From contig CALKOM010000005.1 of NCBI GenBank assembly GCA_938091905.1, forward strand, positions 1 through 33,919: a stretch of DNA of 33,919 nt. Direction: 5' to 3'. How positions within the stretch are numbered: position 1 is the stretch's first letter; every line of letters begins with the position of its first letter. This document shows, piece by piece, positions 1 through 27,712 of this stretch. The notes below the pieces were generated by a model. The model was not told where the DNA came from. It searched no databases and saw only the letters and a list, made by a program, of their open reading frames with translations. Made by a program: the position numbers and the translations under genes. The DNA comes from an uncultured Verrucomicrobiales bacterium. GTDB lineage: Bacteria > Verrucomicrobiota > Verrucomicrobiia > Verrucomicrobiales > DEV007.

Positions 1-713
1 AGACGATTGATAGAGCGCTCATACTTCTGCAAAGCTTTCTTTGGATTCTTCCAGGGATTGTATCGCGTAGGCGCCTGCGGCAAGCCCGCCAAGTAGACGG
101 CTTCAGCCAGCGTGAGGGCACCACACCGTTTCCCAAAGTAGGAAAGCGAGGCACTTTCTGCTCCAATCCGCCGGTTCCCATAGTCCAAGCGGTTCAGATA
201 GCCTTCAAGCACCTGCCTTTTCGTCCACTCACGCTCTAACTTTAACGCAAGGATAGCCTCCAACCACTTTCGACGCCAGTCACGACCACGCTTCCCCAGA
301 TCTTGCTTAATCACCTGCTGAGTAATGGTCGAGCCTCCCCTTCGCAAACGACTCGCGCGAATATCAGACCAAGCTGCCGCCACAATCGCATAGGGATCCA
401 CTCCACTGTGATCATAGAAACGATGATCCTCCAAAGCCACGGTCACTTCTGGCAACCATCGCCCCATTTCTGACAGTTTCCCCACGACACGCGAGCGGGC
501 TCCTTTCTCCGCCAAGGTCGCCAGAACACCTCCCTCCGCATCATAGATCACGGGAGTGCCGTTCAATGGCTCTTTCGTCGAATCCGGAAATCGAGTGGTG
601 TGAATGAGGATCTCAAGAAAGACCACGCCAAGCAGGCCCAGCCCAACAAGCCAGAGAAACCCACGCCGAAGACGAGTTGGCCAAGGAATCTTCGTTTCAG
701 GTGCGATAGCCAT
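1..713 (-). CDS. Bifunctional penicillin-binding protein, GT51 transglycosylase domain (PBP1C-like); 3' end runs off the window
   Basis: Absent from the ORF track. Manual translation from ATG 713 (in-frame TGA just upstream) gives MAIAPETKIPWPTRLRRGFLWLVGLGLLGVVFLEIL (one TM), then VALEDHRFYDHSGVD, RGGSTITQQVIK, KWLEAILALKLE, YLNRLDYGN and LAEAVYLAGLPQAPTRYNP. These are the GT51 motifs. Confidence 0.92.
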   Translation of the reverse strand, partial: MAIAPETKIPWPTRLRRGFLWLVGLGLLGVVFLEILIHTTRFPDSTKEPLNGTPVIYDAEGGVLATLAEKGARSRVVGKLSEMGRWLPEVTVALEDHRFYDHSGVDPYAIVAAAWSDIRASRLRRGGSTITQQVIKQDLGKRGRDWRRKWLEAILALKLEREWTKRQVLEGYLNRLDYGNRRIGAESASLSYFGKRCGALTLAEAVYLAGLPQAPTRYNPWKNPKKALQKYERSINR

Positions 714-785
714 TCATTGGTAGCCTTACTCAGTATCAACAGGGTTTCACCTCGATTCGTCGCCCATTCGGCACTAGAAACTGTC

Positions 786-3700
786 ATGCACCGGCAACTC
801 ATCTCGCTTCTATGCACACTCCTACTCGCGCAGGCCCAGGAGGAGGCCTCAACCTGGAATGTCGACGAGCCTCCCGGCCCCAAGCGGGTGCAGATTATCG
901 ACGTGGACGAAGGCACCTGGATCAGCGTCGACATCAGTCCCGATGGCAAGACGGTTGTCTTCGATTTGTTAGGCAATCTTTACCTCATGCCAATCGCAGG
1001 GTCCGCCAATCCTAACAAAATCACTTCAGGAATGGCTTGGGACATGCAGCCACGTTTCAGTCCTGATGGAAAAACGATCGCTTTCACAAGTGATCGTACG
1101 GGCAAAGCTGGTCACGGAGGCAACAATCTCTGGACAATCCAACCGGATGGCAACGGGCTCACCCAGGTTACCGACGAAGATACCCATTTGGTCAATGGGC
1201 CCACGTGGTCCATGGATGGCGACTACCTGGTCGCGCGAAAGCACTTTACAAGTCGGCGTTCCTTGGGTGCCGGGGAAATGTGGATGTATCACCGGAGCGG
1301 GGTCGAGGGCGATGCCGCAGGCGGTGTGCAGCTGACGAAGAAGCCCAATGAACAGAAGGACGTAAATGAACCGGCCTTTTCACGCGACGGCAAGTTTCTC
1401 TACTACTCTCAAGACTCCACCCCAGGCGACACGTTTGAATACGACAAGGATTCGAACAAACAGATCTACGTCATCAAACGGCTCAACCTCGAGACCGGAG
1501 AAACCATCAATCTGATCTCAGGCCCAGGAGGCGCGTGTCGGCCCACGCCATCTCATGATGGGAAACAGATCGCATTCGTGCGCCGCGTGGGAGCGAAGAC
1601 AGGCCTGCACGTCTTCGATCTTGCCTCTGGCGCCATTCGGTTAGTCAATGATCAGTTAGAACGCGACATGCAAGAGGCCTGGGCCATTCACGGCGTGTAT
1701 CCTGCCTTTGCCTGGACACCCGATGATCAGTCGATCGTCCTGTGGGCACGCGGAAAGATTCGTAAGATCGCCATCGCAGATGGTAGCGAATCCGTCATTC
1801 CATTCCGGATCCAAGATGAACGCCAAGTCGTTGAAGCCCTCCGCACACCGGTCAAGGTTGCAGAAGACACCTTCTCTACCCGCATGCTCCGTTGGGTGCG
1901 AGTATCACCGAACGGCCGCCAAGTCGTCTTCCAAGCGTTGGGCTATCTCTATGTCAGGGACTTACCCAACGGGTCACCACAGCGACTCACGAGTCAGAAT
2001 GATCACTTCGAGTTCTGTCCCAACTTCTCTCGAGATGGCAAGGTACTGGTCTACACCACATGGAATGACAAGACGTTAGGCCAATGTCGAATCCTTGACC
2101 TTTCCACGAAGCAAAGCCGCGTGATCACGTCTCAACCTGGCCATTATCTCGATCCCGTCTTCTCCCCGGATGGCCAGACCATCGTGTTTCGCAAGGCGGG
2201 GGGAGGCTACTTGCGCTCCCATCTATGGTCCCAGGATCCTGGCCTTTACCGCGTCAACCAGTCCGGTGGCGAAGCCGAGCAGGTAAGCAAACGCGGGAAA
2301 CACCCGCAGTTCGCTGAGACCAACGACCGTATCTTCTTTATCGTGTCGTCCCCTGACAAAGACGCGGATCACGTGCGACTCATTTCAACCGACCTTGATG
2401 GCCATGAGGAACAAGAACACTACTCTAGCAAATGGGCAACCGACTTTGCTCTCTCGCCCGATGGGAAACGCATTGCCTTTATCGAGCGATTCAATGTCCA
2501 CCTCGCACCCTTTGTCCGGGCAGGCAAAGCCATCGAGGTTGGGCCAGAAGCCAAGGGCATCCCGGTTACAAAGGTTAGCGAACAGGCCGGCGATTGGATC
2601 CATTTCTCTGCCGATGGCACTCAGCTTCACTGGGCTCTCGGATCTCAGATGCACACCAAGGACCTCAGCGATCTTCAGAAGGCCTCGACCATGCAGGACC
2701 TCTCCTGGGAAGTGCCACATGCCAAGCCGACGACCACTTACGCCCTCACGGGCGCAAAGGTCGTCACGATGTCAGACAAAGGCATTCTCGAAGACGCTTC
2801 CATTCTCGTAGAAGGCAATCGTATTGCGGCAGTCGGCACACGTTCAGAAGTTGAGATTCCTGACACTGCCATACAGATCGATATTGCCGGCCAAGTCATT
2901 CTACCAGGATTCATCGACACGCATGCGCATGGCTCTCAAGCGAGTCAAGGGATCACGCCACAACAGAACTGGGTGGATCTTGCCCGACTGGCCTTTGGAG
3001 TCACCACCGTTCATGACCCATCCAATGACACGAAAGAGATCTTCGCCGCCAGTGAGATGACGCAAGCGGGCGTCATCACCGCACCACGGACGTTCTCCAC
3101 TGGCACCATTCTATATGGCGCAAGGGGAAGTTTCCGAGCAGAGGTGAACACCTTAGAAGATGCCACGTTTCATTTGGAACGCATGCAAGCCGTCGGTGCG
3201 TTCACAGTCAAGAGCTACAATCAACCCCGGCGGGATCAGCGGCAGAAGGTCCTTCAGGCAGCACGTCAGTTAGACATGATGGTCGTGCCCGAAGGCGGCT
3301 CCCTCTTCATGAACAACATGACCATGATCGTCGATGGCCACACCGGGATAGAGCACACGCTTCCTGTGCAGTATGCCTATGATGATGTGATGGATCTCTG
3401 GAGAGGCACGGGCGTTGGCTACACGCCCACGTTGTGTGTCGCTTTCGGAGGAATGTCAGGCGAGATCTACTGGTATCAGGAAGCCGACCTTTGGAAACAT
3501 CCACGCCTCCAGACATTTATCCCTCCACACGTGCTCGAACCACGCTCGCGCCGCCGGGAAACGGCTCCGATTGAAGATTTCAATCACATCAAAGTTGCTA
3601 GCATTACCAAACAACTAATCGACCAAGGGGGTCTCGTCCAGGCAGGTGGTCACGGTCAGCTCAACGGCATTTGTACCCACTGGGAAATGTGGAGCTATGT

Positions 3701-4046
3701 TCAAGGTGGCATGACGCCACTCGAAGCGCTTCGTTGTGGCACCCTGAATGGAGCCAAATACATTGGACTCGATGGCGATCTCGGATCCTTGGAGCCCGGC
3801 AAACTCGCCGACCTCATTGTGATCGCTAAAGACCACGATCCTACCATCAACATTCGCCATTCGGAGAACATCCAATGGGTCATGGCCAACGGAAACCTCT
3901 ACGACGCTAGCACGATGCGGGCGATCGACGGTGAGGAACGAGCGCCGTTCTTCTGGGTTCATCATGGTCCCGGGTCGGATCTCAGCGCACTGCCAACGTC
4001 AGGCTGTCAGCATTGTCGCCCCGGTGCCGGGACACTTCGCCATTAA
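786..4046 (+). CDS. Secreted amidohydrolase with N-terminal TolB-like/PD40 beta-propeller repeats
   Basis: Signal peptide from ATG 786 (MHRQLISLLCTLLLAQA). Repeated P-x-F/W-S-P/R-D-G units. Amidohydrolase motifs ILPGFIDTHAH, GVTTVHDP, VKSYNQP, GIEH and LGSLEPGKLADLIV. The ORF-track start at 600 overlaps the PBP gene and is unlikely. Confidence 0.88.
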   Translation: MHRQLISLLCTLLLAQAQEEASTWNVDEPPGPKRVQIIDVDEGTWISVDISPDGKTVVFDLLGNLYLMPIAGSANPNKITSGMAWDMQPRFSPDGKTIAFTSDRTGKAGHGGNNLWTIQPDGNGLTQVTDEDTHLVNGPTWSMDGDYLVARKHFTSRRSLGAGEMWMYHRSGVEGDAAGGVQLTKKPNEQKDVNEPAFSRDGKFLYYSQDSTPGDTFEYDKDSNKQIYVIKRLNLETGETINLISGPGGACRPTPSHDGKQIAFVRRVGAKTGLHVFDLASGAIRLVNDQLERDMQEAWAIHGVYPAFAWTPDDQSIVLWARGKIRKIAIADGSESVIPFRIQDERQVVEALRTPVKVAEDTFSTRMLRWVRVSPNGRQVVFQALGYLYVRDLPNGSPQRLTSQNDHFEFCPNFSRDGKVLVYTTWNDKTLGQCRILDLSTKQSRVITSQPGHYLDPVFSPDGQTIVFRKAGGGYLRSHLWSQDPGLYRVNQSGGEAEQVSKRGKHPQFAETNDRIFFIVSSPDKDADHVRLISTDLDGHEEQEHYSSKWATDFALSPDGKRIAFIERFNVHLAPFVRAGKAIEVGPEAKGIPVTKVSEQAGDWIHFSADGTQLHWALGSQMHTKDLSDLQKASTMQDLSWEVPHAKPTTTYALTGAKVVTMSDKGILEDASILVEGNRIAAVGTRSEVEIPDTAIQIDIAGQVILPGFIDTHAHGSQASQGITPQQNWVDLARLAFGVTTVHDPSNDTKEIFAASEMTQAGVITAPRTFSTGTILYGARGSFRAEVNTLEDATFHLERMQAVGAFTVKSYNQPRRDQRQKVLQAARQLDMMVVPEGGSLFMNNMTMIVDGHTGIEHTLPVQYAYDDVMDLWRGTGVGYTPTLCVAFGGMSGEIYWYQEADLWKHPRLQTFIPPHVLEPRSRRRETAPIEDFNHIKVASITKQLIDQGGLVQAGGHGQLNGICTHWEMWSYVQGGMTPLEALRCGTLNGAKYIGLDGDLGSLEPGKLADLIVIAKDHDPTINIRHSENIQWVMANGNLYDASTMRAIDGEERAPFFWVHHGPGSDLSALPTSGCQHCRPGAGTLRH

Positions 4047-6568
4047 CGACAGATCAACTTCCACAAATCGATCATCCCACTCGGCCGAATCCCCACCTCA
4101 CGATTTCGAGCCCCAATCTCGAAAGCGATCTGCCACTGCTTGAACAGCGTCCGGTAGGCATGCCACAAACCATGCTTGGGATCGTAGATGTTCGTGGACT
4201 CCGACGTGACCCCATTGAGCTCTAGCACTTTCAGGTTCCGGCCTTGCTGGAAGTCTTCTTCACTGGGCACACGAATATCATAACGTCCAAAGTAGAAGCC
4301 TGCAAAGCCACGACTCATGAGATCGATGCTCTTTCTAAGCGACTCGGTCAGATGCTCGCCACCATCGAGAAATAAGGCTCCTCGACAATGGGTGCCGACC
4401 TCAGTCAGAGCGACCCATTCGCCAGCCCTGGGAACCTCCAAGAGACGTGCTCCCAATTGGCTGATGAAGAACGGGGCCATGCAGACCGCCCGATCATCTG
4501 CGAGCAGCAGCGCTTCCAAATTCCGCACACCATCGCCTGCCACGCCAATCAATCGCTTGTCCGTAATCGAGAAGAGGTGCCCTTCCGCTTCATCAGGATA
4601 ACGATAGTAGAAGACCCCAAACTCCCGTCCCCCAATGTACTCCTGAACAATCGTCGGTTCTATGGCTTGAGCGAAGTAGGCTTGCGCCTCGTCCTCGGAC
4701 GGCACCACCTTCACACCACTGCCACGTTCCCCGACGTCGGGTTTCAGAACGACGGGAAACGTCAGCGACTGGAGGGCCATAAACTCCAGCATGTCAGCTA
4801 ACATCACTTCGGCATCCTGATGCCCAATCAAGCGCCACCGAGCCACTTCCGGGATATCACCCAGCCCCTCAAGAATCTCGCTCTTCGACTCCTTGACCAC
4901 GCCGCTGTGCGGAATCGAGGGATTCGCTGCGGTGAATAGCGTGAGACTCCGGTAGCGAATCGCAAGCCAAAGCAGATACAGGACGACCGGCGGATAGAAG
5001 AGCCACATCGGCCAGAACTCCCAGCGGATCTTGCGTCGCCAAGAAGACAGCAGAAGTCGTCGTCCGCGATAACTGCACAGTGGCACGACGAGCTTCAGCA
5101 TAGCCCAAAGAATCAACACCACCGCAACCAGACCTAACAAAGCGTAAGTTTCGAAACGCTCAAACCACCCCAACAACGGTCCGCCGATCCAACAAGCCAT
5201 TCCTACTAGCAAAGGCGTCCAGACGGCTGCTGCTAGCAAGAACCAACCGGCAAACTTCAAAAACGGCGCACGAAACATCCCCGACGCAAAGTAGGTCGGC
5301 AGGCGTGTTCCTGGGACAAAGCGGGTGGCAATGACGAGGGCTGGCCCCTGCTTCTGAAAGAACGCCGCCCCACGCTCAACTTGATTCCTCTTGAACATCC
5401 ATTTCAAGGGGGCACGGCGAAGCGCCGGCGGTCCGATCCACCGACCAGCCGTGTAGAGAAGCATGTCTCCGATGAATATCCCAAGGAGACAGCCCATCGT
5501 CGCAGGCACGAAATCCATCGCCCCACGCGCAACAAGTAGTCCAGCCCCAATGCACGTCAGGTCTTCCGAGACCAAGGTCGCCAGGGCTAACAAAACCATC
5601 ATAAAGATCACCGTTCCCCAGGCATCTCGCTGAGGGCGATGCTGGTCAAAGGGTTCGCTTGCGAGACTCACGCGACTGGGCACCGCCTGGGTGCGCGACG
5701 TCCCCTGCCCTGCTTCTACCCGATTCACAAAGTCGATCACTGGCGCGGCTACTTTCTCAGGCTGCCGAATGACCGTGATGTGATCTCCATCCTCGATCGT
5801 AGCCAATTCACTCTGCGGGACGAGCCGGTGGTGCTCCACTGCAGCGTCATAGGGCACCAGAAAGTCATTCTCCCCATGCACAATCAGTGTGGGATGCTCC
5901 AGCTTTTCTAGATAACTCCGATAAGGACGCTGATCGGTATCGTAGAAATTGCGGGCGTAGGATCGGTTCAAGGGAAACCGATCCATCCATCCGAAATGCG
6001 GCACGCTCGCTTGCAATCCGCTCAGGGCAGCGAGCTGCAATCCATGCACCGCATGATTTAAAGTGTAGTCTCCAAGCAACTCTAACTCTTGCACACCAAC
6101 CGACGAGACCATCACTATTGAAACCACGCGCTCCGGCTTCATCTCCATCATCTCCAACGCCACACCACCACCCATACTATAGCCTAACAGGTGCGCTTGA
6201 TCGATCTGCAGATGATCCATCAGCTCAAAGACCGCAAACGCGTGAGCACGCGTTGAATAGTCTTCGACATCTAACGTGGAGCCACCAAAGCCCGGCAGAT
6301 CAGGCACAATGAGCCTGGCATTCCCTTCAAGCTCATTCATGAGCGGCGTTAACGACACTGCAGCCACTGGGCTCCCATGCAATAGCACGAGATTTGGTAG
6401 CGAAGCCTCGCTACGATCGCGGTAGGAAACCTCGACCTCGCTCGATATCGTCACCGTCTGAGCACCATCCGGCGCCACGCCCGTCGTAACCTCTCGTCGC
6501 ACACAATGCGAGGCGCCTAGCAAGAGGCAATAAATCACCAAGAAGCTTCGAATGAGAACACGCCGCAT
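4043..6568 (-). CDS. Three-domain fusion: alpha/beta-hydrolase + DedA/VTT membrane domain + ATP-grasp (Ddl-like carboxylate-amine ligase)
   Basis: N-terminal hydrophobic leader (MRRVLIRSFLVIYCLLLGA). Hydrolase motifs LLHGSP, PDLPGFG, GYSMGG, HGENDF, GDH. DedA motifs SEDLTCIGAG, GDMLLY, ATRFVPGTRLP. ATP-grasp motifs FPVVLKPDVGERGSGV, IVQEYIGGREFG, GRYD, LELNG. ATG 6568 lies 2 nt after the NRDE stop. Confidence 0.85.
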   Translation of the reverse strand: MRRVLIRSFLVIYCLLLGASHCVRREVTTGVAPDGAQTVTISSEVEVSYRDRSEASLPNLVLLHGSPVAAVSLTPLMNELEGNARLIVPDLPGFGGSTLDVEDYSTRAHAFAVFELMDHLQIDQAHLLGYSMGGGVALEMMEMKPERVVSIVMVSSVGVQELELLGDYTLNHAVHGLQLAALSGLQASVPHFGWMDRFPLNRSYARNFYDTDQRPYRSYLEKLEHPTLIVHGENDFLVPYDAAVEHHRLVPQSELATIEDGDHITVIRQPEKVAAPVIDFVNRVEAGQGTSRTQAVPSRVSLASEPFDQHRPQRDAWGTVIFMMVLLALATLVSEDLTCIGAGLLVARGAMDFVPATMGCLLGIFIGDMLLYTAGRWIGPPALRRAPLKWMFKRNQVERGAAFFQKQGPALVIATRFVPGTRLPTYFASGMFRAPFLKFAGWFLLAAAVWTPLLVGMACWIGGPLLGWFERFETYALLGLVAVVLILWAMLKLVVPLCSYRGRRLLLSSWRRKIRWEFWPMWLFYPPVVLYLLWLAIRYRSLTLFTAANPSIPHSGVVKESKSEILEGLGDIPEVARWRLIGHQDAEVMLADMLEFMALQSLTFPVVLKPDVGERGSGVKVVPSEDEAQAYFAQAIEPTIVQEYIGGREFGVFYYRYPDEAEGHLFSITDKRLIGVAGDGVRNLEALLLADDRAVCMAPFFISQLGARLLEVPRAGEWVALTEVGTHCRGALFLDGGEHLTESLRKSIDLMSRGFAGFYFGRYDIRVPSEEDFQQGRNLKVLELNGVTSESTNIYDPKHGLWHAYRTLFKQWQIAFEIGARNREVGIRPSGMIDLWKLICR

Positions 6569-6570
6569 GA

Positions 6571-7287
6571 CTAGGAAGCGCGCGGCATTCGCGTGCACGT
6601 GGTCTCTAGCATCTCTGCAAACTCTCTTGCCTGAGGCTCGTAGTTCACCACGACCTCCCCCGCCGTCACACAAATGTGGCTGATGCTCATGGTCTGAGCA
6701 TCGTCACGCCTCATGAACACAGCATACGGCGATCCATGCACCGAGCCACTGCGATGGAACGCAGAGAGCGCCTTCGTGTCAGGATCCGATCCCAAACCTT
6801 TGAAAGCTTGCGCACGTAAGGAAATGGCTCGTCCGGAGTCGTAGGATGAGGTGGTCAGTGGCCGATCTTTCTCACCAAGTCTGAATGCCTGTAACGATGC
6901 CCCATTCCAGATCCAATGCCTCGGCACTTCCTCCGGAGCCACACACACCAAATGGAACGGTCGATACCGATCCAAGTTCATTGATTCCAAAGAGACGCAC
7001 TCCTCGGACGCCAACTGGAACGGCAAACGCCCTCGGCTCATCGGATGCTCTGGAGACGGCCGAATCGCAGCAAGATCGTAGTGATTCAGAAGAGCAAAGG
7101 TAACGCCCCGATCATTCACGGCCAACCAGGTGCCGCCGTGATCCGCATCGCGCGGGGCGATCAACCGCACGCCATTCTCTTCCATCACGGTTGGACTCAA
7201 CTCAGGTAAGCGAGTCTTTTTCTCATCACGATTGAAGAACACATGATAGGCGCCATCGGCCTCATGCTTCCAGGTCAACGTGCACAT
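6571..7287 (-). CDS. NRDE / TANGO2 family protein (Ntn-hydrolase-like fold)
   Basis: Starts MCTLTW (N-terminal Cys) at ATG 7287. Contains FFNRDE, GGTWLAVN, LLN, SRGRL, YRPFHL and TSS. The start overlaps the 3' end of the DinB gene. Confidence 0.9.
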   Translation of the reverse strand: MCTLTWKHEADGAYHVFFNRDEKKTRLPELSPTVMEENGVRLIAPRDADHGGTWLAVNDRGVTFALLNHYDLAAIRPSPEHPMSRGRLPFQLASEECVSLESMNLDRYRPFHLVCVAPEEVPRHWIWNGASLQAFRLGEKDRPLTTSSYDSGRAISLRAQAFKGLGSDPDTKALSAFHRSGSVHGSPYAVFMRRDDAQTMSISHICVTAGEVVVNYEPQAREFAEMLETTCTRMPRAS

Positions 7288-7799
7288 GCCTGGCTCGCTT
7301 GCGCTTGGCGGAACTTCAACGTACTTGGAGCCACACCAAAGTCTTGCGGTACCGCATGGCATTGCATTCGGCAAATCATGCCAATCAGCGCATAGTGATG
7401 CACCGTGTGACTGAGAAGAAACTGAAGTTCACGCCGAACGGATGATGCTGACCATTCAGACTCGCCACCACAGTCCATCTTGACCTGCAGATCTCGATCG
7501 AGGTCCGCAGGCTGGATCTCAGATAAGTCTGTCACCACCCCCTCAAGGATGGCTTTGGCCAAAGGCAACTCTCGCTCCAATCGATGGTCCCTCACACGAT
7601 GGTCATAATCCACACGCCCATCGGCCAGTCCCTGGCAGAAGCAATGATAGTGATCGATGTTGTGCCGAAGATGCGCTCCGATTGAAGCCTCATAGGCCGG
7701 CTTCTCCACCCGAACAAATTGCTCAGATGACAAGGTATCGAGCAAGGCGATGGCCTGCTGGACCGAACCAGTGTTGTCGAGAAGTATGGAAGCCAACAT
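7275..7799 (-). CDS. DinB family protein (His-ligated metal, four-helix bundle)
   Basis: SIGAHLRHNIDHY, VDYDHRVRD and RELQFLLSHTVHHYALI motifs. Probable start ATG 7799 (MLASILLD). Confidence 0.85.
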   Translation of the reverse strand: MLASILLDNTGSVQQAIALLDTLSSEQFVRVEKPAYEASIGAHLRHNIDHYHCFCQGLADGRVDYDHRVRDHRLERELPLAKAILEGVVTDLSEIQPADLDRDLQVKMDCGGESEWSASSVRRELQFLLSHTVHHYALIGMICRMQCHAVPQDFGVAPSTLKFRQAQASQACAR

Positions 7800-7998
7800 G
7801 AACTCGGGATTTGAATAGCGGATCAGCCGACTTGAGGCAAGCGAATCTGCCAAGGAGAAGAGCGAGAATTCACCCGAGATCAAGCACTCAGAAATTCTGG
7901 GAATAACTCCGTTTCACCCTCGTCATGCCAGGTCAGAGGGGCATCCGGCACGCAGGAACCCGCTCGACATCACCACGGTTTCGAGCCATCTTCCTGGC

Positions 7999-9429
7999 AT
8001 GAACCACGCTCACGCCCAGGATCTGTTTCGCCAGCACCGGCGCACCTTTCTCAAGCAATCCGGCATTGGCATCGGTGGCCTCGCCTTAAGTTCCCTCATT
8101 CAGGCGACTGGCAAGACCATGGCGATGGAAGATCACTGGTCTGGGATGATCGATCCCATGCACCTCGCGCCCAAAGCAAAGCGGGTGATCTTCCTTTGCA
8201 TGGCGGGTGGTCCTTCCCACCTGGAAACGTTAGACTACAAGCCCAAGCTAGCAGAAATGCACGGGCAACCCATGCCCGAGTCGTTCACGAAGGGGCAGCC
8301 AATCGCTCAACTCCAAGGAAACAAGAAGCTCACTTGCTTCGCACCACAACATCCGTTCGAACAATTCGGCGAATCTGGCCAACAGATTTGCTCCAAATTC
8401 CCTCACATTGGTAGTATCGCGGATGACATTTGCATCATCCGGTCGATGAAGACCGAACAGATCAATCACGATCCCGCTCATACGTTTATGAATACCGGGT
8501 CGTCCGTATCCGGTCGTCCCAGCATGGGATCCTGGGTACTCTACGGATTGGGGAGCGATGGGCAAGACCTGCCGGGCTTCGTCGTTCTCACCTCCAGTGG
8601 TGGTGGCCAAGATCAACCGATCGCTGCTCGTCAGTGGCACAGCGGCTTCCTCCCGAGCCGGTTCCAAGGCGTGCAGTTTCAATCAAAGGGCGATCCCGTT
8701 CTCTATGTCGGCCGCCCAGATGGCGTCAGTGAGCGTGATCAACGGCAAGTGTTAGATGCCGTCAATAAACTCAACCAAGTGCACAATGATCAAGTCGATG
8801 ATCCCGAGATCGCCACGCGCATCAGCCAGTATGAAATGGCCTTCAAGATGCAGGCCAGCGTCCCTGGCCTCATGGACATCTCGGACGAACCCCAGAGCGT
8901 GTTAGACATGTACGGCACCAAAGGCGGCGATGGCTCCTTTGCCTCCAACTGCCTGCTCGCCCGCAGGCTTGCCGAGCGCGGTGTCCGGTTCATCCAACTT
9001 TATCACCGCGGCTGGGATCACCACGGTGGAATCAAAAACGGCATCAACACCACGTCTCGACTCGTCGACCAAGGCTCCGCTGCCCTCGTCCGCGACCTCA
9101 AGCAACGCGGCATGCTCGAAGACACTCTCGTTGTCTGGAGCGGTGAATTTGGACGCACGCCCATGGCGCAAGGCTCCGGTCGCGATCACCATATCAAAGG
9201 CTTCTCCATGTGGATGGCCGGCGGCGGAATCAAAGGCGGCACCAGCTATGGCAACACCGATGAACTCGGCTACAACGCCGTCGAGAACGTCGTCCACGTA
9301 CACGACTTCCACGCCACCATGCTCCATCTCTTGGGCATCGAACATAAGCGTATGACGTATCGCTTCCAAGGCAGAGACTTCCGTCTAACAGACGTGCATG
9401 GCAACGTCGTGAAGGCGATTCTTAGTTAG
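7999..9429 (+). CDS. DUF1501 domain protein (sulfatase/alkaline-phosphatase-like), Tat-exported
   Basis: RRTFLK twin-arginine motif; AKRVIFLCMAGGPSHLETLDYKP, CLLARRLAERGVRFIQL, WDHH, GEFGRTP, GRDHH, FRLTDVHG. Confidence 0.92.
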   Translation: MNHAHAQDLFRQHRRTFLKQSGIGIGGLALSSLIQATGKTMAMEDHWSGMIDPMHLAPKAKRVIFLCMAGGPSHLETLDYKPKLAEMHGQPMPESFTKGQPIAQLQGNKKLTCFAPQHPFEQFGESGQQICSKFPHIGSIADDICIIRSMKTEQINHDPAHTFMNTGSSVSGRPSMGSWVLYGLGSDGQDLPGFVVLTSSGGGQDQPIAARQWHSGFLPSRFQGVQFQSKGDPVLYVGRPDGVSERDQRQVLDAVNKLNQVHNDQVDDPEIATRISQYEMAFKMQASVPGLMDISDEPQSVLDMYGTKGGDGSFASNCLLARRLAERGVRFIQLYHRGWDHHGGIKNGINTTSRLVDQGSAALVRDLKQRGMLEDTLVVWSGEFGRTPMAQGSGRDHHIKGFSMWMAGGGIKGGTSYGNTDELGYNAVENVVHVHDFHATMLHLLGIEHKRMTYRFQGRDFRLTDVHGNVVKAILS

Positions 9430-13681: not shown

Positions 13682-14800
13682 TCAACGCGCGGCTTTCTGT
13701 TTGCGAAATCTCCCTTTCGTCTTGCGGGCAAGAGCCTTGAGCATGCGCTCTTCTTCACGGTCGTCCTTGCCGGTGACGTAGTAAATGGTGTGGATTCTGG
13801 GCACTTGGGGCAAGTCTTCGGCAGACTTGTCGATCAATTCCGTCAGCTCCTTCGCCTCAATGACCTCAAACTTTCCCCGCCCCTGGCTGCGCGTGGCGTT
13901 GCCATCGGTGAGCATGAAGGCAACCTCGGCTCGCAGCTTGAGAAGGGCCTCCAGGGCATAGTCATGGCGTGTCCCCCCCGGCCTACCGCCTCGCGGCCCC
14001 GCCTTGTTGTAATCGACCCGGCTTTGAATGTGCTCTTTGGCCAAAGCTCGGTTTGCTTTCGTCGCAGGAACCAGACTTTCCTTCCACAGCCTCGCGCTTC
14101 CCGACCAATGGATGACCCCAAAGAGCGTATTCACACTGAGACTATCAATAAGCTGCGACGCTTCATCTCGAATCGTTTGGAAGGCTTGATCCTTACCCTT
14201 GCGCACAAGCTTGCTCGAGCTGTAATCAAGATCACCTGTCCTCCCAAACATTGATGCGGAGACGTCGATCATGATGACGACGCTACGGGCGTTGTCCTTG
14301 ATATTGAAGAAACTCATCCCACTGCCGGTCCCTTGACCTCCTGCCAAGCCTTTACCAAGCGCCGTTCCCAAACCGGGACTTCCAGAGAGACTGGCTAACT
14401 GATCCGAGATCAGCTCAGATGGATCCAAGGGAATCATTTGATCGACTGGAACTTCAGGCAACTCAGGCAACGCAAACTCTGTCGGCCGAATACTGACTAA
14501 CTTTTGATCAAAGACTGGCTTCGGCGTCATGGCCATGTGCTTTGCCATGTTCATTTTGTGTTCCCGCGTCTGCGCGGGGACGACAATTCGCTTCTCGACC
14601 GTAAACGTAGCTTCTGGTTCTTTGAAATACTCTGCGATCTTGAAGAGACCAAATAGCACCAAACCGATTGCGTGTACGGCAATGCTTCCCAGAACGATCG
14701 TCACGATGAGCCCGCGCTTGCGATTGCCATCACGAGGCTTGGGTTTCTTCGACTTGCGTTTCCGCATGGGAGTTAGGCGGTCTCGATTTGCTTCGATCAT
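13682..14800 (-). CDS. Membrane-anchored vWA domain protein with Pro/Gly-rich linker
   Basis: Basic N-terminus, one TM containing S-x3-H (GSIAVHAIG), then PELPEVP and a Gly-rich linker. MIDAS elements VVIMIDVSASM, GGT and FMLTDG. Confidence 0.8.
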   Translation of the reverse strand: MIEANRDRLTPMRKRKSKKPKPRDGNRKRGLIVTIVLGSIAVHAIGLVLFGLFKIAEYFKEPEATFTVEKRIVVPAQTREHKMNMAKHMAMTPKPVFDQKLVSIRPTEFALPELPEVPVDQMIPLDPSELISDQLASLSGSPGLGTALGKGLAGGQGTGSGMSFFNIKDNARSVVIMIDVSASMFGRTGDLDYSSSKLVRKGKDQAFQTIRDEASQLIDSLSVNTLFGVIHWSGSARLWKESLVPATKANRALAKEHIQSRVDYNKAGPRGGRPGGTRHDYALEALLKLRAEVAFMLTDGNATRSQGRGKFEVIEAKELTELIDKSAEDLPQVPRIHTIYYVTGKDDREEERMLKALARKTKGRFRKQKAAR

Positions 14801-15667: not shown

Positions 15668-16429
15668 TTAGTCTTCGGACTGCCCGGACAATTTAACTTC
15701 GCCACTCAGAACATCGATGAGGAAACTTGTCTGCTTTTGAATAGAACTGATGATCGCCGTAAGCCGATCCCGAAAGAAGAAGTAGAAGAACATCGATGGA
15801 ATACCTACTAACAAGCCTCCTGCTGTGGTCACCATGGCTTTGCGGATACCGCCAGCCAATTGAGAGGGTTCGGAATTGGCCTGCTCCAACTGCTGAAACG
15901 ACTCGATCATCCCCACCACCGTTCCCAGGAGACCGATCATGGGGGCCAAGGTGGCGAAGACGTTGAGGTAGTTGACCCAGAGCATGTAACGGGTCTCTTC
16001 CTGATCAAGTGCTTCACCAGCCGCCTCCATCATGGACTCCTTGTTCGCGCGATCTCGATCAAAGTTCACCTTTAGCAAAGCCGAGGACAGGACTTCCGAG
16101 TAGCTGCTCGGATTCGACTGACAGAGTTCGTAGGCATGCGTCACATCGCGTTTCTCCATGTACTTTGTCATGTTCTCTGCCAGCGCTACTGGGGCCATCT
16201 TCTTCGTATTAACCTGAGTGAAACAGTAAACGGCCACTGCTATGGTGCCGACCGAACAGAGAAGCAGCACGTGCATCATCCAGCCACCGTCTTGGTAGTA
16301 ATCTAGCAGTGAAACCGTACGCTCTGGCACGGGTTCCGCCACTTCTACATCCGCCTCTTGAGCAGAGACCTGAAGTAGAAAGCAGCCCAACAGGCAGAGA
16401 ATAAGGAGGAGGGAATGTCGTCGATTCAT
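15668..16429 (-). CDS. exbB: MotA/TolQ/ExbB proton channel family protein
   Basis: Signal peptide; GGWMM; ATLAPMIGLLGTVVGMIESF; LAGGIRKAMVTTAGGLLVGIP. Confidence 0.92.
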   Translation of the reverse strand: MNRRHSLLLILCLLGCFLLQVSAQEADVEVAEPVPERTVSLLDYYQDGGWMMHVLLLCSVGTIAVAVYCFTQVNTKKMAPVALAENMTKYMEKRDVTHAYELCQSNPSSYSEVLSSALLKVNFDRDRANKESMMEAAGEALDQEETRYMLWVNYLNVFATLAPMIGLLGTVVGMIESFQQLEQANSEPSQLAGGIRKAMVTTAGGLLVGIPSMFFYFFFRDRLTAIISSIQKQTSFLIDVLSGEVKLSGQSED

Positions 16430-17361
16430 GATTTCGGGGAAGCCTCATCGAGTAACTGCCTAGCAAGGCCGCTCTCATTGGAGTCAGGGTAAAGTTTCAG
16501 GAGATCCTCGGCAGTAGACTTGGCCTTGTCTGGCATCTTCCCGTGGAGATAAACCTCGCATACCTGCCAGAGCCCACTCGCAGCCGGTTCGCGAAGCGCA
16601 CCTTGGAAGAGGCTGCCATAGAGAAAGTGATCGATGGCTTCATGAAACAGGGCATGCCGTTGAGAGAAGATCTCGTCATCCTCCATCCACCGGGGGTGGG
16701 CTTCGACGAGTTCTTTCAGCGCGTCGAACGCCGCATAACCTAAAACCTGCCGAGCTTCCACCGTGACTTGGGGATCGGTCGTCTCCTCAAGCAATCGTGT
16801 TGCCGCCTTCTTGGCCTCTTCCGCTCGCCCCGTGAGGACAAGTGCTTTGAGTCGTCGTTGCTGAGCTCGACTACGCCTAACGTCATCCCAATCAGCTGAA
16901 ATGATCTTATCGAGCAAGAGCAGCGCTGCCCTGGCGTGGTCCTCGCCACTCGCAAGCCATTGCTCAGCTAACAAGATTCCATAACTACCAGCTGGACTAT
17001 TCGCCTCTGCCAAATAGCTCTCATGCCTCACCCAAAGACGACGAAGCTTCTCGACATCGGCTGATCTCTTTCCTTCAACAATGGCCAAGTTCTCCTCTGT
17101 TTGCTCAAAGTCGATGAAGGCAACGTCTTTACGAGGAAGCCGCTTGCAAGATTCGCCACGGCCCCTAGGGCCATCGATGATGACGTTAAACTCGACCCAT
17201 TCCTCGTTAGTCGAAAGGGTCTTTCCATCGAAGGAATCGCCAGAATGGAAATGAACGACGTCTTGGGCGTGGGCGCACGTTGCAATCAGTGCTAGCATAT
17301 AGAATACGATCCGACACCTACTGGAAGCCAGTACGACATTGCGCTTTGCCAGAGATCTCAT
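16426..17361 (-). CDS. Exported protein with N-terminal beta domain and C-terminal TPR-like repeats
   Basis: Signal-like segment ending AHA-QDVV; helical repeats; C-terminal LLKLYPDS typical of CpoB/YbgF-type TPRs. Overlaps both neighbours by 4 nt. Confidence 0.7.
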   Translation of the reverse strand: MRSLAKRNVVLASSRCRIVFYMLALIATCAHAQDVVHFHSGDSFDGKTLSTNEEWVEFNVIIDGPRGRGESCKRLPRKDVAFIDFEQTEENLAIVEGKRSADVEKLRRLWVRHESYLAEANSPAGSYGILLAEQWLASGEDHARAALLLLDKIISADWDDVRRSRAQQRRLKALVLTGRAEEAKKAATRLLEETTDPQVTVEARQVLGYAAFDALKELVEAHPRWMEDDEIFSQRHALFHEAIDHFLYGSLFQGALREPAASGLWQVCEVYLHGKMPDKAKSTAEDLLKLYPDSNESGLARQLLDEASPKS

Positions 17362-23558: not shown

Positions 23559-23633
23559 GCCCTCAGCGGTCGCGACGATTCCTAGAGAATGGGTTCCATT
23601 ACAGAAGAGAATCTAGTACATCAGCTTTCTTCT

Positions 23634-26275: not shown

Positions 26276-27712
26276 ATGAGCAAATCCTCACTCAATCGCC
26301 GCGCCTTTCTCCGAGGAATGGGAGGCATCACTGTAGGCATGCCCTTCCTAGAAGAGATGCTGGCCACCTCGGCGTCCGCAGCTGCCGCAACCGCGGCCAA
26401 TGCAAGTGCCGTGCCGGTCCGGGCGTTTAACGTCTTCTTTGGACTAGGAATTCCGTCGCCGCTACAGAGTGAGGGCTATGATGGCGTGTTAGAACCTCTC
26501 AAGGCACTCAAGGATCAACTCCTCATCATGCGGAGTCTCGATCACGTGCGCTGTGACGAATCCGGTATCAATGCCCACTTCGATGGCGCCTCGGCAGCCT
26601 TCACTGCCGAACCACCCAGTGGCGAAGCCAAGTCAGGTGGCCCATCCATTGATCAAGTCATCCGGCACTCACATTATGCTGACGGGCTCCCTCCCGGCAT
26701 GGTCCCCACGCTCGTCGGCGGCACCTTCTTTCGACGCAGCAGGGTCAGTCGCTATGTCCACAGCTACAACTTGGACGGCACCGTGGCTGCAACCATGCAA
26801 GAGCGTCCACGCGACCTCTTTGATCGCGTCTTTGGCAAGCTCGACGTTGCTGACAACGATGTGAGGAAAGAACGCCTCAAGCGGAGCGTGCTCGATTCCG
26901 TCGTCGATCAGTACAAGTTTTACACGGGGGCACATTCGCCCTTGGGCAATGTGTCCAAAGGGCGGATCAAAGATCATCTCGATCGCGTGCGTGAGTTTGA
27001 GCAACGGGCGTACGCTATGAAGGAACACGCCGCCGATGCGCCCGATCTTCCACCCGAGTCCAAGCTCCTCCACGGCGGCTCAGCTGATCCCGGCGGCGAA
27101 GGCATCGACATCACGCTAGACGAACTCACGACGGAGTGGCGGCTCATGGCAGACCTTTACGCACTCGCGATTCAGTGCGACCGCGTCCGGTTCGGCTCTC
27201 TCACCTTCCTTGCTGCGGGAGAACGCATCCGTCTCACTGGCGACTACATGTTCAATGGCAAGAAGCGTTTCGAGTTTGATGACGCCAATCAGCTCCGAGC
27301 CTCTGGCTCTGCAGGTTGTAGCCATGAGTGGTGGCATCGGTTCAACCCGAAGAAGGACAATAAACAGCTTCGCATGCACGCCCACATGAAGATGCGCGAA
27401 GTGGCTTACTTCCTCCAACGCCTCAACGAAGACGAGACACGTGAAGCCAATGGAAAGACTTTGTTAGAAAACGCCCTAATAACCGTGTCGACAGAGTCAG
27501 GCGATGGCCGCCACAACGACGTCAAACGCGAACTCTCCGGCGTTTTCCATGCTGTCAGTGGTGCCAATGGTCGCTTCAAAACGGGTGAGATCGTCGACGT
27601 AAAGAGCGAAGGTATCGATGTCTACAATACGATGCTGGGTGCCATGGACGCCAAGCGGCACATCGGCCCAGCCGACCGCGAGAAGCGTCCTGTGGATAGC
27701 ATCCGGGCTTGA
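26276..27712 (+). CDS. DUF1552 domain protein, Tat-exported
   Basis: LNRRAFLRGMGG...MPFLEEM, PSIDQVI, PRDLFDRVFG, SVLDSV, HLDRVREFE, EANGKTLLEN. This is the usual position downstream of a DUF1592 gene. Confidence 0.85.
   Translation: MSKSSLNRRAFLRGMGGITVGMPFLEEMLATSASAAAATAANASAVPVRAFNVFFGLGIPSPLQSEGYDGVLEPLKALKDQLLIMRSLDHVRCDESGINAHFDGASAAFTAEPPSGEAKSGGPSIDQVIRHSHYADGLPPGMVPTLVGGTFFRRSRVSRYVHSYNLDGTVAATMQERPRDLFDRVFGKLDVADNDVRKERLKRSVLDSVVDQYKFYTGAHSPLGNVSKGRIKDHLDRVREFEQRAYAMKEHAADAPDLPPESKLLHGGSADPGGEGIDITLDELTTEWRLMADLYALAIQCDRVRFGSLTFLAAGERIRLTGDYMFNGKKRFEFDDANQLRASGSAGCSHEWWHRFNPKKDNKQLRMHAHMKMREVAYFLQRLNEDETREANGKTLLENALITVSTESGDGRHNDVKRELSGVFHAVSGANGRFKTGEIVDVKSEGIDVYNTMLGAMDAKRHIGPADREKRPVDSIRA

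Follow-up and report, generated by a model that had tools for sequence, protein, structure and literature searches.

A DinB–TANGO2–hydrolase/DedA/ATP-grasp gene module with a possible accessory role in bacterial aminolipid metabolism

A conserved three-gene locus

Three co-directional genes occupy positions 4043..7799 of the window (the whole 33,919-nucleotide stretch of DNA analysed here), all on the minus strand (Table 1). They encode a DinB-like protein (P0003), a TANGO2/NRDE-like protein (P0002) and a fusion (P0001) of an α/β-hydrolase, a DedA-type membrane domain and an ATP-grasp ligase. The source organism is a marine bacterium; the module that the three genes form is widespread. A first-pass annotation had described the three genes as tightly coupled, and the coordinates agree at both junctions: the DinB and TANGO2 genes share 13 nt (7287..7275) around the stop of the one and the start of the other, and the fusion gene begins after a gap of 2 nt (6570 and 6569) behind the TANGO2 stop.

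Similar junctions are found elsewhere. The DinB and TANGO2 genes overlap in 21 of 31 same-strand loci, 12 of those 21 with the identical 13-nt overlap, and in 20/34 loci there is a 4-nt overlap between the TANGO2 stop and a candidate fusion start, chosen heuristically. Because gene order and junctions recur over many loci, a chance run of open reading frames is ruled out and the observation is confirmed as real. The trio genes recur in both GTDB loci and genomes of the window's phylum, the point on which the first-pass annotation had proposed to stand or fall. Its further statement, that it knew of no characterised pathway of this composition, is in line with our literature searches, which returned no description of the module and no characterised pathway combining DinB, TANGO2 and hydrolase/DedA/ATP-grasp.

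Table 1. Genes of the trio and features of the fusion protein
Feature	Position	Strand	Details
DinB-like gene, P0003	7275..7799	-	ATG at 7799, TGA 7277-7275; 174 aa; first of trio
TANGO2/NRDE-like gene, P0002	6571..7287	-	ATG at 7287, TAG 6573-6571; 238 aa; N-terminus Met-Cys
Fusion gene, P0001	4043..6568	-	ATG at 6568, stop ends at 4043; 841 aa
N-terminal hydrophobic helix, putative signal anchor, aa 2-23	6500..6565	-	hydropathy peak aa 4-22; helix 2-23 in full-length model
Alpha/beta-hydrolase domain, aa 37-285	5714..6460	-	Pfam Abhydrolase_1, Abhydrolase_6; triad Ser131-Asp235-His263
DedA/VTT membrane domain, aa 317-497	5078..5620	-	Pfam VTT_dom; helices in model
Lys/Arg-rich amphipathic helix and short hydrophobic helices, aa 500-538	4955..5071	-	model helices 500-514, 521-524, 526-538
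ATP-grasp ligase domain, aa 544-841	4046..4939	-	model, profile and fold matches

Domain identities and conserved residues

The domain calls of the first pass proved right on comparison with Pfam, profile searches, an AlphaFold2 model and fold searches. The fusion family retains about 50% identity across phyla. P0001 matches Abhydrolase_1 at 87 bits (cut-off 25.8) and VTT_dom at 49.7 bits (cut-off 33.9). The hydrolase triad is invariant in 71/71 full-length homologues, as are E335, D336, R416 and R422 of the DedA domain. The nearest folds to the hydrolase are esterases and lipases, including PhaZ (8ynv), the membrane phospholipase A PlaF (6i8w) and ABHD6 (7ots), while for the DedA domain NCBIfam ranks first the undecaprenyl phosphate transporter UptA (49 bits) and then DedA (40 bits), each well under its cut-off (250 for UptA). 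Since the loops at residues 372–440 and 495–516 are Lys/Arg-rich (12 and 8 K/R, respectively), the ligase side is probably cytoplasmic, and with the N-terminal anchor ahead of it the hydrolase would then lie on the opposite side. From the charge counts and the model, the hydrolase is thus predicted to face the periplasm, and the helices at residues 500–538 may hold the ligase at the membrane surface.

The ligase domain gave a Pfam ATP-grasp_3 match of only 16.6 bits (cut-off 23.2). A profile built from 70 homologues matches cyanophycin synthetase 2 (7ta5, E 5e-10), CphA1 (1.6e-7), GshAB (1.8e-6) and a RimK-domain protein (2.2e-6); the AlphaFold2 model of the domain has a mean pLDDT of 92.5, and the top Foldseek matches are GshF, CphA and Ddl. 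The weak Pfam call is therefore upheld by the profile match, the model and the fold searches. VIA-align gave Z scores of 15.2 and 14.4 for LysX/ArgX, 14.2 for CphA, 14.1 for VanA and 13.5 for RimK; the fold ranking fixes no substrate for the ligase, because VanA, DcsG, synapsin and Ddl all score no more than about 2 Z units below the best match. K609, E649, R762 and D764 are invariant in 71/71 full-length homologues, and E783 and N785 are present in 70/71. By its sequence, the domain looks intact and active. In the model its N-terminal substrate subdomain appears strongly reduced, the usual soluble form being absent. The profile recovered 1567 cluster representatives at E<=1e-30, and among the best 150 of these, 54 are 500–779 aa long and keep DedA and ATP-grasp without the hydrolase.

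P0002 matches Pfam TANGO2 at 45.6 bits (cut-off 22.6) and carries the motif N19-R20-D21-E22 alongside its Met-Cys N-terminus. In 36/36 complete homologues the conserved Cys comes immediately after a start codon; C2, T3, R20, D21 and E22 show no variation among 37 family sequences, and N19 is kept in at least 90%. This conserved Met-Cys start, together with the invariant R-D-E, argues for catalysis. A profile of the homologues matches human TANGO2 (8sv7, 9bwa; E 9.3e-8), whose crystal structure is reported to favour a Cys Ntn-hydrolase with fatty-acid derivatives as its substrates (PMC13044924).

P0003 scores exactly at the Pfam DinB_2 cut-off (24.8 bits). Its Atlas neighbours are DinB clusters, and a profile of 50 homologues has a single match, the DinB-like protein 3dka (E 0.008), in an alignment that pairs up the His positions. 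Residues H46, H131, H134, H135, R45, Y65, R68, R70, R123 and E124 are invariant in the profile, which includes a putative 3-His metal site at H46, H131 and H134/H135.

Genomic neighbourhoods and phyletic distribution

A search of GTDB species genomes yielded 640 loci encoding fusion relatives, and the best 80 were taken for neighbourhood analysis. Upstream DNA of 1500 nt or more was available at 70 of these: DinB is found at 48, TANGO2 at 34, both at 32 and neither at 20. Where at least 4000 nt upstream were available (59 loci), an OlsB-like GNAT N-acyltransferase (PF13444) lies in the same gene run at 45, an OlsA-like PlsC O-acyltransferase (PF01553) at 38 and a ferric-reductase/Rieske protein at 19; all five partner genes are absent at 6. 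The best NCBIfam models for the acyltransferases are OlsB (138 bits) and OlsA (136 bits). Operons from other phyla encode a protein that joins a ferric-reductase-type (heme b-type) membrane domain and a Rieske domain; no heme protein of this kind lies beside the trio in the window or in class-level relatives. Clustering of the open reading frames at the 80 loci gave a DoxX-like cluster at 15 loci and no recurring genes for the synthesis of peptidoglycan, undecaprenyl phosphate (Und-P), phospholipids or thiols.

A genome of the same class (G099) has a single operon encoding an ECF sigma factor, DUF3379, DoxX, YHS, DinB, TANGO2, DedA::ATP-grasp, OlsB and OlsA, in which the ligase protein is a 536-aa form without the hydrolase domain. 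DoxX and YHS adjoin DinB in this genome and in G001. The link to aminolipid genes was absent from the first-pass annotation.

The distribution was also surveyed in a sample from the window's phylum, 151 genomes in all. Of these, 17 carry the ATP-grasp module and 95 have PF13444 (OlsB/OlsF-type), namely all 17 module carriers and 78 of the 134 non-carriers. The TANGO2 subfamily occurs in 14 genomes and the DinB subfamily in the identical 14, all within the 17 ligase carriers; 0/134 others have either. Fisher tests on this nesting gave p = 2e-4 and p = 3e-17, values that are overstated, the genomes being related. PF13444 adjoins the ligase gene in only two carriers (G099 and G150) and is unlinked in the other 15/17; because the synthase gene is usually unlinked, the aminolipid link in this phylum rests on co-occurrence. 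The window's own genome has one PF13444 gene, on contig C201 (the trio is on C5), for a 596-aa OlsF-like protein (PF19576 and PF13444) that matches NCBIfam OlsF over its full length at 400 bits, under the equivalog cut-off of 620. According to a 2026 review, neither OlsF activity nor ornithine lipid is backed by functional evidence in Verrucomicrobiales.

A possible role in aminolipid metabolism

The first-pass annotation had proposed ligation of an amine or amino acid to an acyl or lipid acceptor, followed by translocation and editing. Its checkable parts all held, which supports the proposal, while the ligate, flip and edit chemistry is still what we infer. The acceptor can be narrowed towards an aminolipid: the module shares operons with OlsB/OlsA- or OlsF-type aminolipid synthase genes in most phyla and co-occurs with them in genomes of the window's phylum. 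Our preferred reading, held with about as much doubt as confidence, is that the module is accessory to the metabolism of ornithine-lipid-type acyloxyacyl amino-acid lipids, contributing ligation, DedA flipping, an outward esterase and DinB/TANGO2 tailoring.

From the gene structure, domain identities, conserved catalytic residues, synteny and nested phyletic pattern we infer a substrate, a transport direction, an esterase orientation and a series of chemical steps. An OlsF-like synthase encoded elsewhere in the genome would make an N-acyl amino-acid lipid at the cytoplasmic face. The membrane-tethered ATP-grasp domain would activate a carboxylate, most plausibly the lipid head group's free alpha-carboxylate, as an acyl phosphate and couple an amine or amino acid to it, so that the head group is extended. 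The lipid may then cross the inner membrane via the DedA domain of the same polypeptide and be deacylated or transacylated there by the N-terminal Ser-Asp-His esterase, predicted to face outward. An obligate cytoplasmic pair, made up of DinB as a metal protein with three His ligands and the N-terminal-Cys enzyme of TANGO2 type, would further tailor the head-group amide or reverse it, through an amidase or transamidase and a metal-dependent, possibly redox, step. We know of no ATP-grasp-made lipid head group described in any module carrier.

The same synteny and phyletic data would also apply to aminolipid turnover or remodelling instead of head-group extension. Here the esterase, which resembles the membrane and lyso-lipid lipases PlaF and ABHD6, would cut an ester-linked fatty acid, DedA would carry the lyso-lipid back to the inner leaflet, the N-acyl amide would be cleaved by the TANGO2-like Ntn enzyme, and the ATP-grasp domain would re-ligate or salvage the amino acid. 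The structure report likens TANGO2 to three enzymes that cut lipid amides: acid ceramidase, NAAA and bile-salt hydrolase (PMC13044924). We consider turnover unlikely, however: pure salvage leaves no obvious job for the ligase, the most conserved and defining part, hydrolase-less forms retain DedA and ATP-grasp, and the module sits within biosynthetic OlsB-OlsA operons. A different membrane substrate, with aminolipid genes as neighbours only through shared envelope adaptation, would instead involve tRNA-independent phospholipid aminoacylation (an MprF-like logic) or modification of an Und-P-linked precursor before flipping. The UptA match, the high rank of D-Ala-D-Ala ligases and VanA among the fold matches, the unlinked synthase in most phylum carriers and the ECF sigma factor heading the G099 operon, which fits a general envelope-stress role, all point that way. 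This too seems improbable, since PF13444 accompanies the module in every carrier genome and lies in the same gene run at most loci, whereas envelope-synthesis genes do not recur and the UptA match falls far short of its cut-off.

At the level of folds, a DinB protein, an Ntn-Cys hydrolase and an ATP-dependent ligase might also parallel EgtA/EgtB/EgtC in a small-molecule thiol or gamma-glutamyl-type pathway, in which the ligase would add a transient amino-acyl handle, DinB perform a metal- and thiol-dependent step, the Ntn enzyme remove the handle and DedA export the product. Redox and metal partners (DoxX and YHS beside DinB, ferric-reductase/Rieske proteins) would suit it, but we regard it as very unlikely, given the lack of recurring thiol-biosynthesis genes, a ligase that is fused to a lipid-transporter-type domain and lacks the usual soluble substrate subdomain, and an acyltransferase tie that points to lipid. 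The TANGO2 homologue could, finally, take no catalytic part in lipid chemistry and serve the heme proteins of the operon as a chaperone, like HtpA of Shewanella, the sole characterised bacterial homologue, which is reported as a heme-trafficking protein that binds heme and aids cytochrome c maturation (PMC10470608). Operons of other phyla do encode such a heme protein, but in the window and its class-level relatives the trio has none beside it, the conserved N-terminus and R-D-E argue for catalysis, heme binding by human TANGO2 is reported as nonspecific (PMC13044924) and an eLife 2026 abstract disputes the heme role (PMC12782551); we give this reading hardly any weight.

For the aminolipid role, ATP-dependent transfer of taurine to the carboxyl of ornithine lipid, forming cerilipin, is described as a known activity whose gene is unknown (PMC12971839), and such chemistry therefore has an orphan enzyme. 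P0002, for its part, is related to TANGO2, a human disease protein. The closest folds to the ligase domain are those of LysX/ArgX, cyanophycin synthetase, RimK and Ddl. These enzymes, like GshF, join an amino acid to the carboxylate of a large or anchored acceptor.

Layout of the trio and its surroundings

The window is contig C5 of an assembly of 212 contigs and 6.19 Mb, and the three genes of the trio lie on its minus strand, all co-directional. The DinB and TANGO2 genes overlap by 13 nt and the TANGO2 and fusion genes are separated by 2 nt, so that the tight coupling reported by the first-pass annotation is borne out by the coordinates. The 13-nt overlap of DinB stop and TANGO2 start (window 7275-7287) recurs in 12 of 31 related, distant loci, and from this recurrence the overlap itself appears to be conserved.

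The flanking genes are unrelated. On one side a PD40/amidohydrolase gene runs towards the fusion gene, the two stops overlapping by 4 nt (4043-4046), and on the other a DUF1501 gene diverges from the DinB gene; the operon in this genome is thus the trio alone. A promoter and terminator scan of 3800-8200 returned one promoter-like and four terminator-like sites, not above shuffled expectation (1.8 and 4.6, respectively). Two RNA-Seq metatranscriptome runs of a single study yielded short contigs over 4965-5300, 6186-6444 and 7674-7960; as DNA carry-over is possible, these contigs give at most a weak hint that the trio is expressed. The DUF1501, PSD/PSCyt and DUF1552 families found elsewhere in the window are typical of Planctomycetota and Verrucomicrobiota, in support of the phylum assigned from the labels of homologues. 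Sixteen runs from 11 studies contain DNA near-identical to window 4000-8000; their labels are marine, seawater, plankton, ballast-water or plain metagenome, and one run possibly represents the source sample. From this the organism appears to be widely distributed in sea water.

Features of the window and parts of the fusion protein (nucleotide positions are those of the window; residue ranges are from the full-length model of P0001)
Feature	Position	Strand	Size	Remarks
PD40 beta-propeller repeats + C-terminal amidohydrolase	600-4046	+	1148 aa	
Fusion gene (P0001)	ATG 6568 to stop ending at 4043	-	841 aa	alpha/beta-hydrolase + DedA/VTT + ATP-grasp
TANGO2/NRDE-like gene (P0002)	ATG 7287 to TAG 6571	-	238 aa	Met-Cys start
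DinB-like gene (P0003)	ATG 7799 to TGA 7275	-	174 aa	
DUF1501	7999-9429	+		
ORF without Pfam match	13682-14800	-	372 aa	
ORF without Pfam match	16426-17361	-	311 aa	between MotA/ExbB gene and gene for 927-aa TPR protein
PSD/PSCyt protein	23589-26261	+		DUF1592/1588/1585/1587/1595 + planctomycete cytochrome c
DUF1552 protein	26276-27712	+		
Lamin-tail + chitobiase C-terminal + CotH kinase protein	27798-31130	-	1110 aa	
Tripeptidyl-peptidase II-like S8 subtilase	31193-33901	-		neighbour of CotH kinase protein; reaches window end
P0001, N-terminal helix	aa 2-23			
P0001, hydrolase	aa 37-285			
P0001, bundle of membrane helices	aa 317-497			
P0001, amphipathic helix	aa 500-514			Lys/Arg-rich
P0001, short hydrophobic helices	aa 521-538			
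P0001, ligase	aa 544-841			

The fusion protein and its TANGO2 and DinB partners

A word-indexed search with the fusion protein P0001 returned 3204 proteins at E ≤ 0.001 among the 8000 candidates scored. The family is large and its conservation striking: full-length relatives share ~50% identity and carry the labels Verrucomicrobiota, Opitutae, Acidobacteriota/Blastocatellia and KSB1. With a profile of the ligase domain, an exhaustive search found 1567 representatives (50%-identity clusters) at E ≤ 1e-30 among 1.84 billion. Sorted by length, the best 150 of these 1567 comprise 70 of at least 780 aa, which are the three-domain form, 54 of 500-779 aa, which are DedA plus ATP-grasp without the hydrolase, and 26 shorter ones that are probably fragments.

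All three parts of the protein look functional, since each retains invariant residues across 71 full-length homologues: S131, D235 and H263 of the hydrolase, together with its G-Y-S131-M-G motif, the charged E335, D336, R416 and R422 of the DedA part, and K609, E649, R762 and D764 of the ligase (71 of 71 in every case; E783 and N785 of the ligase in 70). The hydrolase matches Pfam Abhydrolase_1 at 87 bits and has the alpha/beta-hydrolase fold and triad, with esterases retrieved by Foldseek at E 2e-13. The membrane part matches VTT_dom at 49.7 bits (gathering cut-off 33.9), and its conserved acidic and basic membrane residues are, we presume, the equivalents of essential residues in E. coli YqjA. 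NCBIfam models fit this domain weakly, UptA at 49 bits (cut-off 250) and DedA PRK10847 at 40 bits (cut-off 236).

The full-length model has a pLDDT of 83.3 and a pTM of 0.52. Lys and Arg residues number 12 in the loop 372-440 and 8 in the loop 495-516, and both loops would be cytoplasmic by the positive-inside rule, as the ATP-using ligase requires. Given these loops and a signal-anchor-like helix ahead of the hydrolase, the latter would face outward, an orientation deduced from charge counting only. PlaF, the inner-membrane-anchored phospholipase A of Pseudomonas aeruginosa (6i8w), is built likewise, its alpha/beta-hydrolase lipase domain coming after one N-terminal anchor, and its match spans P0001 residues 25-288 (E 2.1e-12; Foldseek E 1.3e-12). 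Identity is, however, ~22%, many soluble esterases score equally, and the P0001 hydrolase differs in being fused to DedA and ATP-grasp domains.

The ligase domain is a member of the ATP-grasp superfamily by fold and profile, outside every curated family. Searched as a single sequence it reached no Pfam cut-off, the best score being that of ATP-grasp_3 (18.6 bits against 23.2), with RimK, Dala_Dala_lig_C and CPSase_L_D2 all below threshold, and no ATP-grasp model is among the best 25 of the 53 NCBIfam matches for P0001. Three further lines confirm its identity: a profile built on 70 sequences (E 5e-10 to 7ta5), a structural model of pLDDT 92.5 and two fold searches. Profile matches to ATP-grasp relatives range from E 5e-10 to 1e-5, the nearest solved structures being cyanophycin synthetases, GshF, a RimK-domain protein and Ddl. 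Foldseek likewise returned GshF (3ln6, E 2.8e-10), CphA and Ddl, and VIA-align ranked LysX/ArgX highest (Z 15.2 for 5k2m, and 14.4), then cyanophycin synthetases (14.2 for CphA 7lgm, and 14.0), VanA (14.1) and RimK (13.5), followed by DcsG, synapsin and Ddl.

Judging by entry titles, most of these top-ranked relatives attach an amino acid, through its amino group, to the carboxylate that ends a protein, peptide or polymer; the ranking does not fix the substrate, because rows within ~2 Z units include other chemistries. LysX/ArgX (acting on LysW), the G domain of cyanophycin synthetase, RimK, the ligase domain of GshF and D-Ala-D-Ala ligase share with the window's ligase the fold and the catalytic Lys, Arg-x-Asp and Glu-x-Asn, which we take, by assignment from Ddl, to be the ATP- and Mg-binding positions. 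The window's ligase differs from them in its low identity (~15-19%), in an N-terminal substrate subdomain reduced to a few elements and in being welded to membrane helices. In the model, membrane-surface helices take the place of this reduced subdomain, an arrangement that would fit a substrate delivered from the membrane.

P0002 matches the Pfam TANGO2 model (PF05742) at 45.6 bits against a cut-off of 22.6, its residues 1-119 aligning to profile positions 1-127 of 257. A profile of its homologues matches human TANGO2 structures (8sv7) at E 9.3e-8 with the NRDE motifs aligned, over profile positions 14-123 and hence the N-terminal half only; the single P0002 sequence gave nothing useful against the PDB, and NCBIfam holds no matching model for P0002 or P0003. 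A start codon (ATG or GTG) immediately precedes the conserved Cys in 36 of 36 complete homologues, the 37th being cut by a contig end, and removal of the Met would expose this Cys as an Ntn nucleophile. The 37 sequences show no variation at C2, T3, R20, D21 or E22, and at least 90% of them retain N19. The N-terminal Cys and N-R-D-E motif (Cys2 and N19-E22 in P0002) are shared with human TANGO2, which in turn resembles Cys Ntn-hydrolases (bile-salt hydrolase, NAAA, acid ceramidase and isopenicillin-N acyltransferase).

The biochemical function of TANGO2 is disputed, with heme carrier, acyl-CoA binder and Ntn hydrolase all proposed. The 2026 crystal-structure paper makes the case for human TANGO2 as a Cys Ntn-hydrolase whose large amphipathic pocket would suit fatty-acid derivatives; it assigns the protein Cys2, an Asn25-Glu28 motif and the second-half catalytic residues Asn157 and Lys166, and holds its heme binding to be nonspecific (PMC13044924). 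HtpA, the only bacterial homologue known to be characterised, is reported to be a heme-trafficking protein (PMC10470608).

The DinB-like P0003 is a borderline match to Pfam DinB_2, scoring exactly the cut-off of 24.8 bits; homologues score higher, that of locus L005 for example at E 2.8e-9. All of the 50 sequences compared keep H46, H131, H134 and H135, together with a set of Arg, Tyr and Glu residues, and the four His align with those of the uncharacterised DinB-like structure 3dka, the only structural match. They form a putative metal site of the four-helix bundle. In other genomes DinB repeatedly has redox or metal proteins as neighbours (DoxX, YHS, ferric-reductase/Rieske), a pattern that suggests, as no more than a lead, some metal-dependent and possibly oxidative step. 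A joint complex prediction of the ATP-grasp domain with TANGO2 and DinB, with an alignment for each and DinB as the scored partner, returned a score of 0.00, which speaks neither for nor against binding. Proteins in which the TANGO2 homologue forms part of a longer chain were sought by a Rosetta-stone search, with none at E ≤ 1e-10, a weak form of evidence. The long frame of 466 aa that seems to enclose DinB in G098, a genome of the phylum sample, is explained by upstream read-through of an ORF and was rejected as a fusion.

Neighbourhoods and nested occurrence

When GTDB was scanned at one genome per species, 640 loci encoding relatives of the fusion protein emerged, the best 80 of which were fetched. 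In these 80, tblastn found a TANGO2 homologue in 38 (37 at E ≤ 3e-19 and one at 7e-4) and DinB in 50. Many of the loci are cut by contig ends, and partners were then counted by unsupervised ORF clustering with a minimum upstream length. Seventy loci extend 1500 nt or more upstream: 48 of these have DinB and 34 have TANGO2, 32 have the two together, and 20 lack both. Among the 59 with at least 4000 nt upstream, a PF13444 GNAT lies just upstream in 45 and a PF01553 acyltransferase in 38, a ferric-reductase/Rieske membrane protein occurs in 19, and 6 have none of the partner genes. The top NCBIfam models for the GNAT and the acyltransferase are OlsB (138 bits; equivalog cut-off 320) and OlsA (136 bits; cut-off 300).

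The commonest order is OlsB-like, OlsA-like, DinB, TANGO2, fusion, with 15 loci having exactly these four partners. A cultured bacterium, Rohdeia mirabilis Pla163 (locus L041, NZ_CP036290.1), carries the five genes in this order as a single run. Submitter labels, which may be unreliable for MAGs, place the loci in Acidobacteriota, Gemmatimonadota, Verrucomicrobiota, Planctomycetota, Chloroflexota, Calditrichota, KSB1, Bacteroidota/Rhodothermia and proteobacterial groups. In Gemmatimonadota, Acidobacteriota and others (19 of the 59 loci; for example L005 1200-2998 and L046 822-3832) the operon is headed by genes for a small membrane protein, an unknown protein of 160-200 aa, a ferric-reductase domain fused to Rieske and an unknown protein of ~278 aa; this head may provide redox or hydroxylase functions acting on the same lipid.

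For the window's own phylum we used an evenly drawn sample of 151 genomes. The ligase domain occurs in 17 of them and PF13444 in 95, all 17 included. Fourteen genomes have a TANGO2-subfamily gene; the very same 14 have a DinB-subfamily gene, and all of these fall inside the 17 that bear the ligase. In 13 of the 14 the DinB and TANGO2 genes are neighbours, the exception being G033 with the two on separate contigs, and all three trio genes stand together in 10. The pair DinB and TANGO2 is thus nested within DedA-ATP-grasp, and this within OlsB/OlsF, a pattern that speaks for dependence of the ligase on an aminolipid synthase and for joint action of DinB and TANGO2 as a pair needing the ligase. 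Fisher p-values for the pattern are 2e-4 and 3e-17, and overstate it because the sampled genomes are related. This constant pairing with DinB (14/14 genomes) is unlike anything found for human TANGO2, for which the literature searched yielded no description of a DinB-type partner.

An OlsB-type gene adjoins the ligase gene in only two of the 17 ligase genomes, G099 and G150. In G099, a same-class relative of the window's organism, the module is under an ECF sigma factor: the operon (locus L085, G099:C4:902000-912000, 1644-9244, minus strand) reads ECF sigma, DUF3379, DoxX, YHS, DinB, TANGO2, DedA::ATP-grasp (536 aa, without hydrolase), OlsB and OlsA, and is followed by a FecR-domain gene. G001 carries the same trio as the window, preceded by a gene with a weak YHS domain. 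G110 contains the adjacent DinB-TANGO2 pair twice (G110:C24:1784-2985 and G110:C26:19899-21091). The window's genome has one PF13444 gene, on contig C201 and unlinked to the trio; it encodes a 596-aa OlsF-like protein with N-terminal PF19576 and C-terminal PF13444 that matches NF052615 (OlsF) over its full length at 400 bits (cut-off 620). In the phylum sample, a genus of the window's order (g2; 14 genomes of 1.9-3.2 Mb) has an OlsF-like gene, in open frames of ~600-660 aa, in 14 of 14 genomes, and ligase, TANGO2-subfamily and DinB-subfamily genes in none of the 14, so that the module must count as optional even in a group whose every genome has the synthase.

A proposed aminolipid role and comparison with known systems

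In environmental bacteria, aminolipids are major membrane lipids that contain no phosphorus. The first-pass annotation had proposed a membrane ligation and flipping pathway, to be given up if its genes failed to co-occur elsewhere. They do co-occur in other genomes, and the OlsB/OlsA-like neighbours sharpen the proposal to aminolipids. Its domain calls hold too, those of hydrolase, DedA, TANGO2 and DinB_2 at or above Pfam cut-offs and that of ATP-grasp by profile, model and fold searches. Its further statement, that no characterised pathway of this composition is known to it, agrees with the literature searched (subscription journals and supplements lay outside the search), where we found no description of the module: the parts come from known superfamilies, and their combination and predicted chemistry are without a characterised counterpart there.

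We give even chances to the general reading, a module that would ligate, flip and tailor an aminolipid head group; its main weakness for this window is that the aminolipid synthase is unlinked. The specific version, with a ligase acting on the head-group carboxylate and TANGO2 as amidase, seems to us about half as probable. It would be a bold and rather unlikely outcome that the DedA::ATP-grasp protein founds a class of ATP-dependent aminolipid head-group ligases, synthesis and flipping in one polypeptide, of the kind missing for cerilipin-type lipids, and that its TANGO2 partner, in obligate pair with the DinB metalloprotein, is an amidase or transamidase for an N-acyl amino-acid head group. 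Were this true, the TANGO2 family, human disease protein included, would gain its first genetically anchored substrate class. Independently of that, a TANGO2-family enzyme with intact catalytic Cys and NRDE is placed in a defined lipid operon with a fixed DinB partner, so the disputed function of TANGO2 becomes testable in bacteria. The module, from a large family (1567 representatives, 640 loci), is also a concrete candidate for two aminolipid roles, that of flippase and that of ATP-dependent head-group extension.

The consulted sections of the aminolipid literature describe synthesis by OlsBA, OlsF and OlsH/OlsI and five modifications of ornithine lipid (PMC12971839, PMC11631085, PMC12493201). 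Word searches of the accessible text of the 2024 and 2026 reviews and of PMC12493201 returned no DedA, TANGO2, DinB, ATP-grasp pathway enzyme or flippase, and 'flip' and 'transport' had no match in that of the 2026 review (PMC12971839). The same passages of this review present cerilipin as an ornithine lipid with taurine on the head-group carboxyl, transferred in an ATP-dependent step whose gene "remains unknown", and give no known gene for ATP-dependent head-group extension of aminolipids (PMC12971839); the listed titles and abstracts of the 8 papers containing 'cerilipin' likewise name no taurine-transferase gene.

The OlsB/OlsA and OlsF pathways have tailoring enzymes of their own (hydroxylases OlsC/D/E, methyltransferase OlsG), and in most phyla the module shares operons with OlsB-like and OlsA-like genes. 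Its three proteins have no homology to known Ols enzymes, and no ATP-grasp, DedA, TANGO2 or DinB protein is known among aminolipid enzymes. The most fitting reading of the module is one more tailoring and transport step for OlsBA/OlsF-type lipids. The taurine transferase of Gluconobacter cerinus forms an ATP-dependent amide bond at an aminolipid head-group carboxylate, which is the chemistry the ATP-grasp ligase would perform, whereas the module carriers we found belong to other phyla. MprF is an aminoacyl-phosphatidylglycerol synthase fused to a flippase, with a periplasmic hydrolase partner of the AcvB/PA0919 type. It has no sequence relationship to the module, and its synthase and flippase domains are absent from the Pfam matches of P0001 at E ≤ 0.01. 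Moreover, the module would spend ATP via an acyl phosphate where MprF uses aminoacyl-tRNA, its flippase is of the DedA type and its hydrolase is fused. The likeness is one of logic: a cytoplasmic head-group synthase, a flippase on the same polypeptide and an outward-facing hydrolase able to trim the product.
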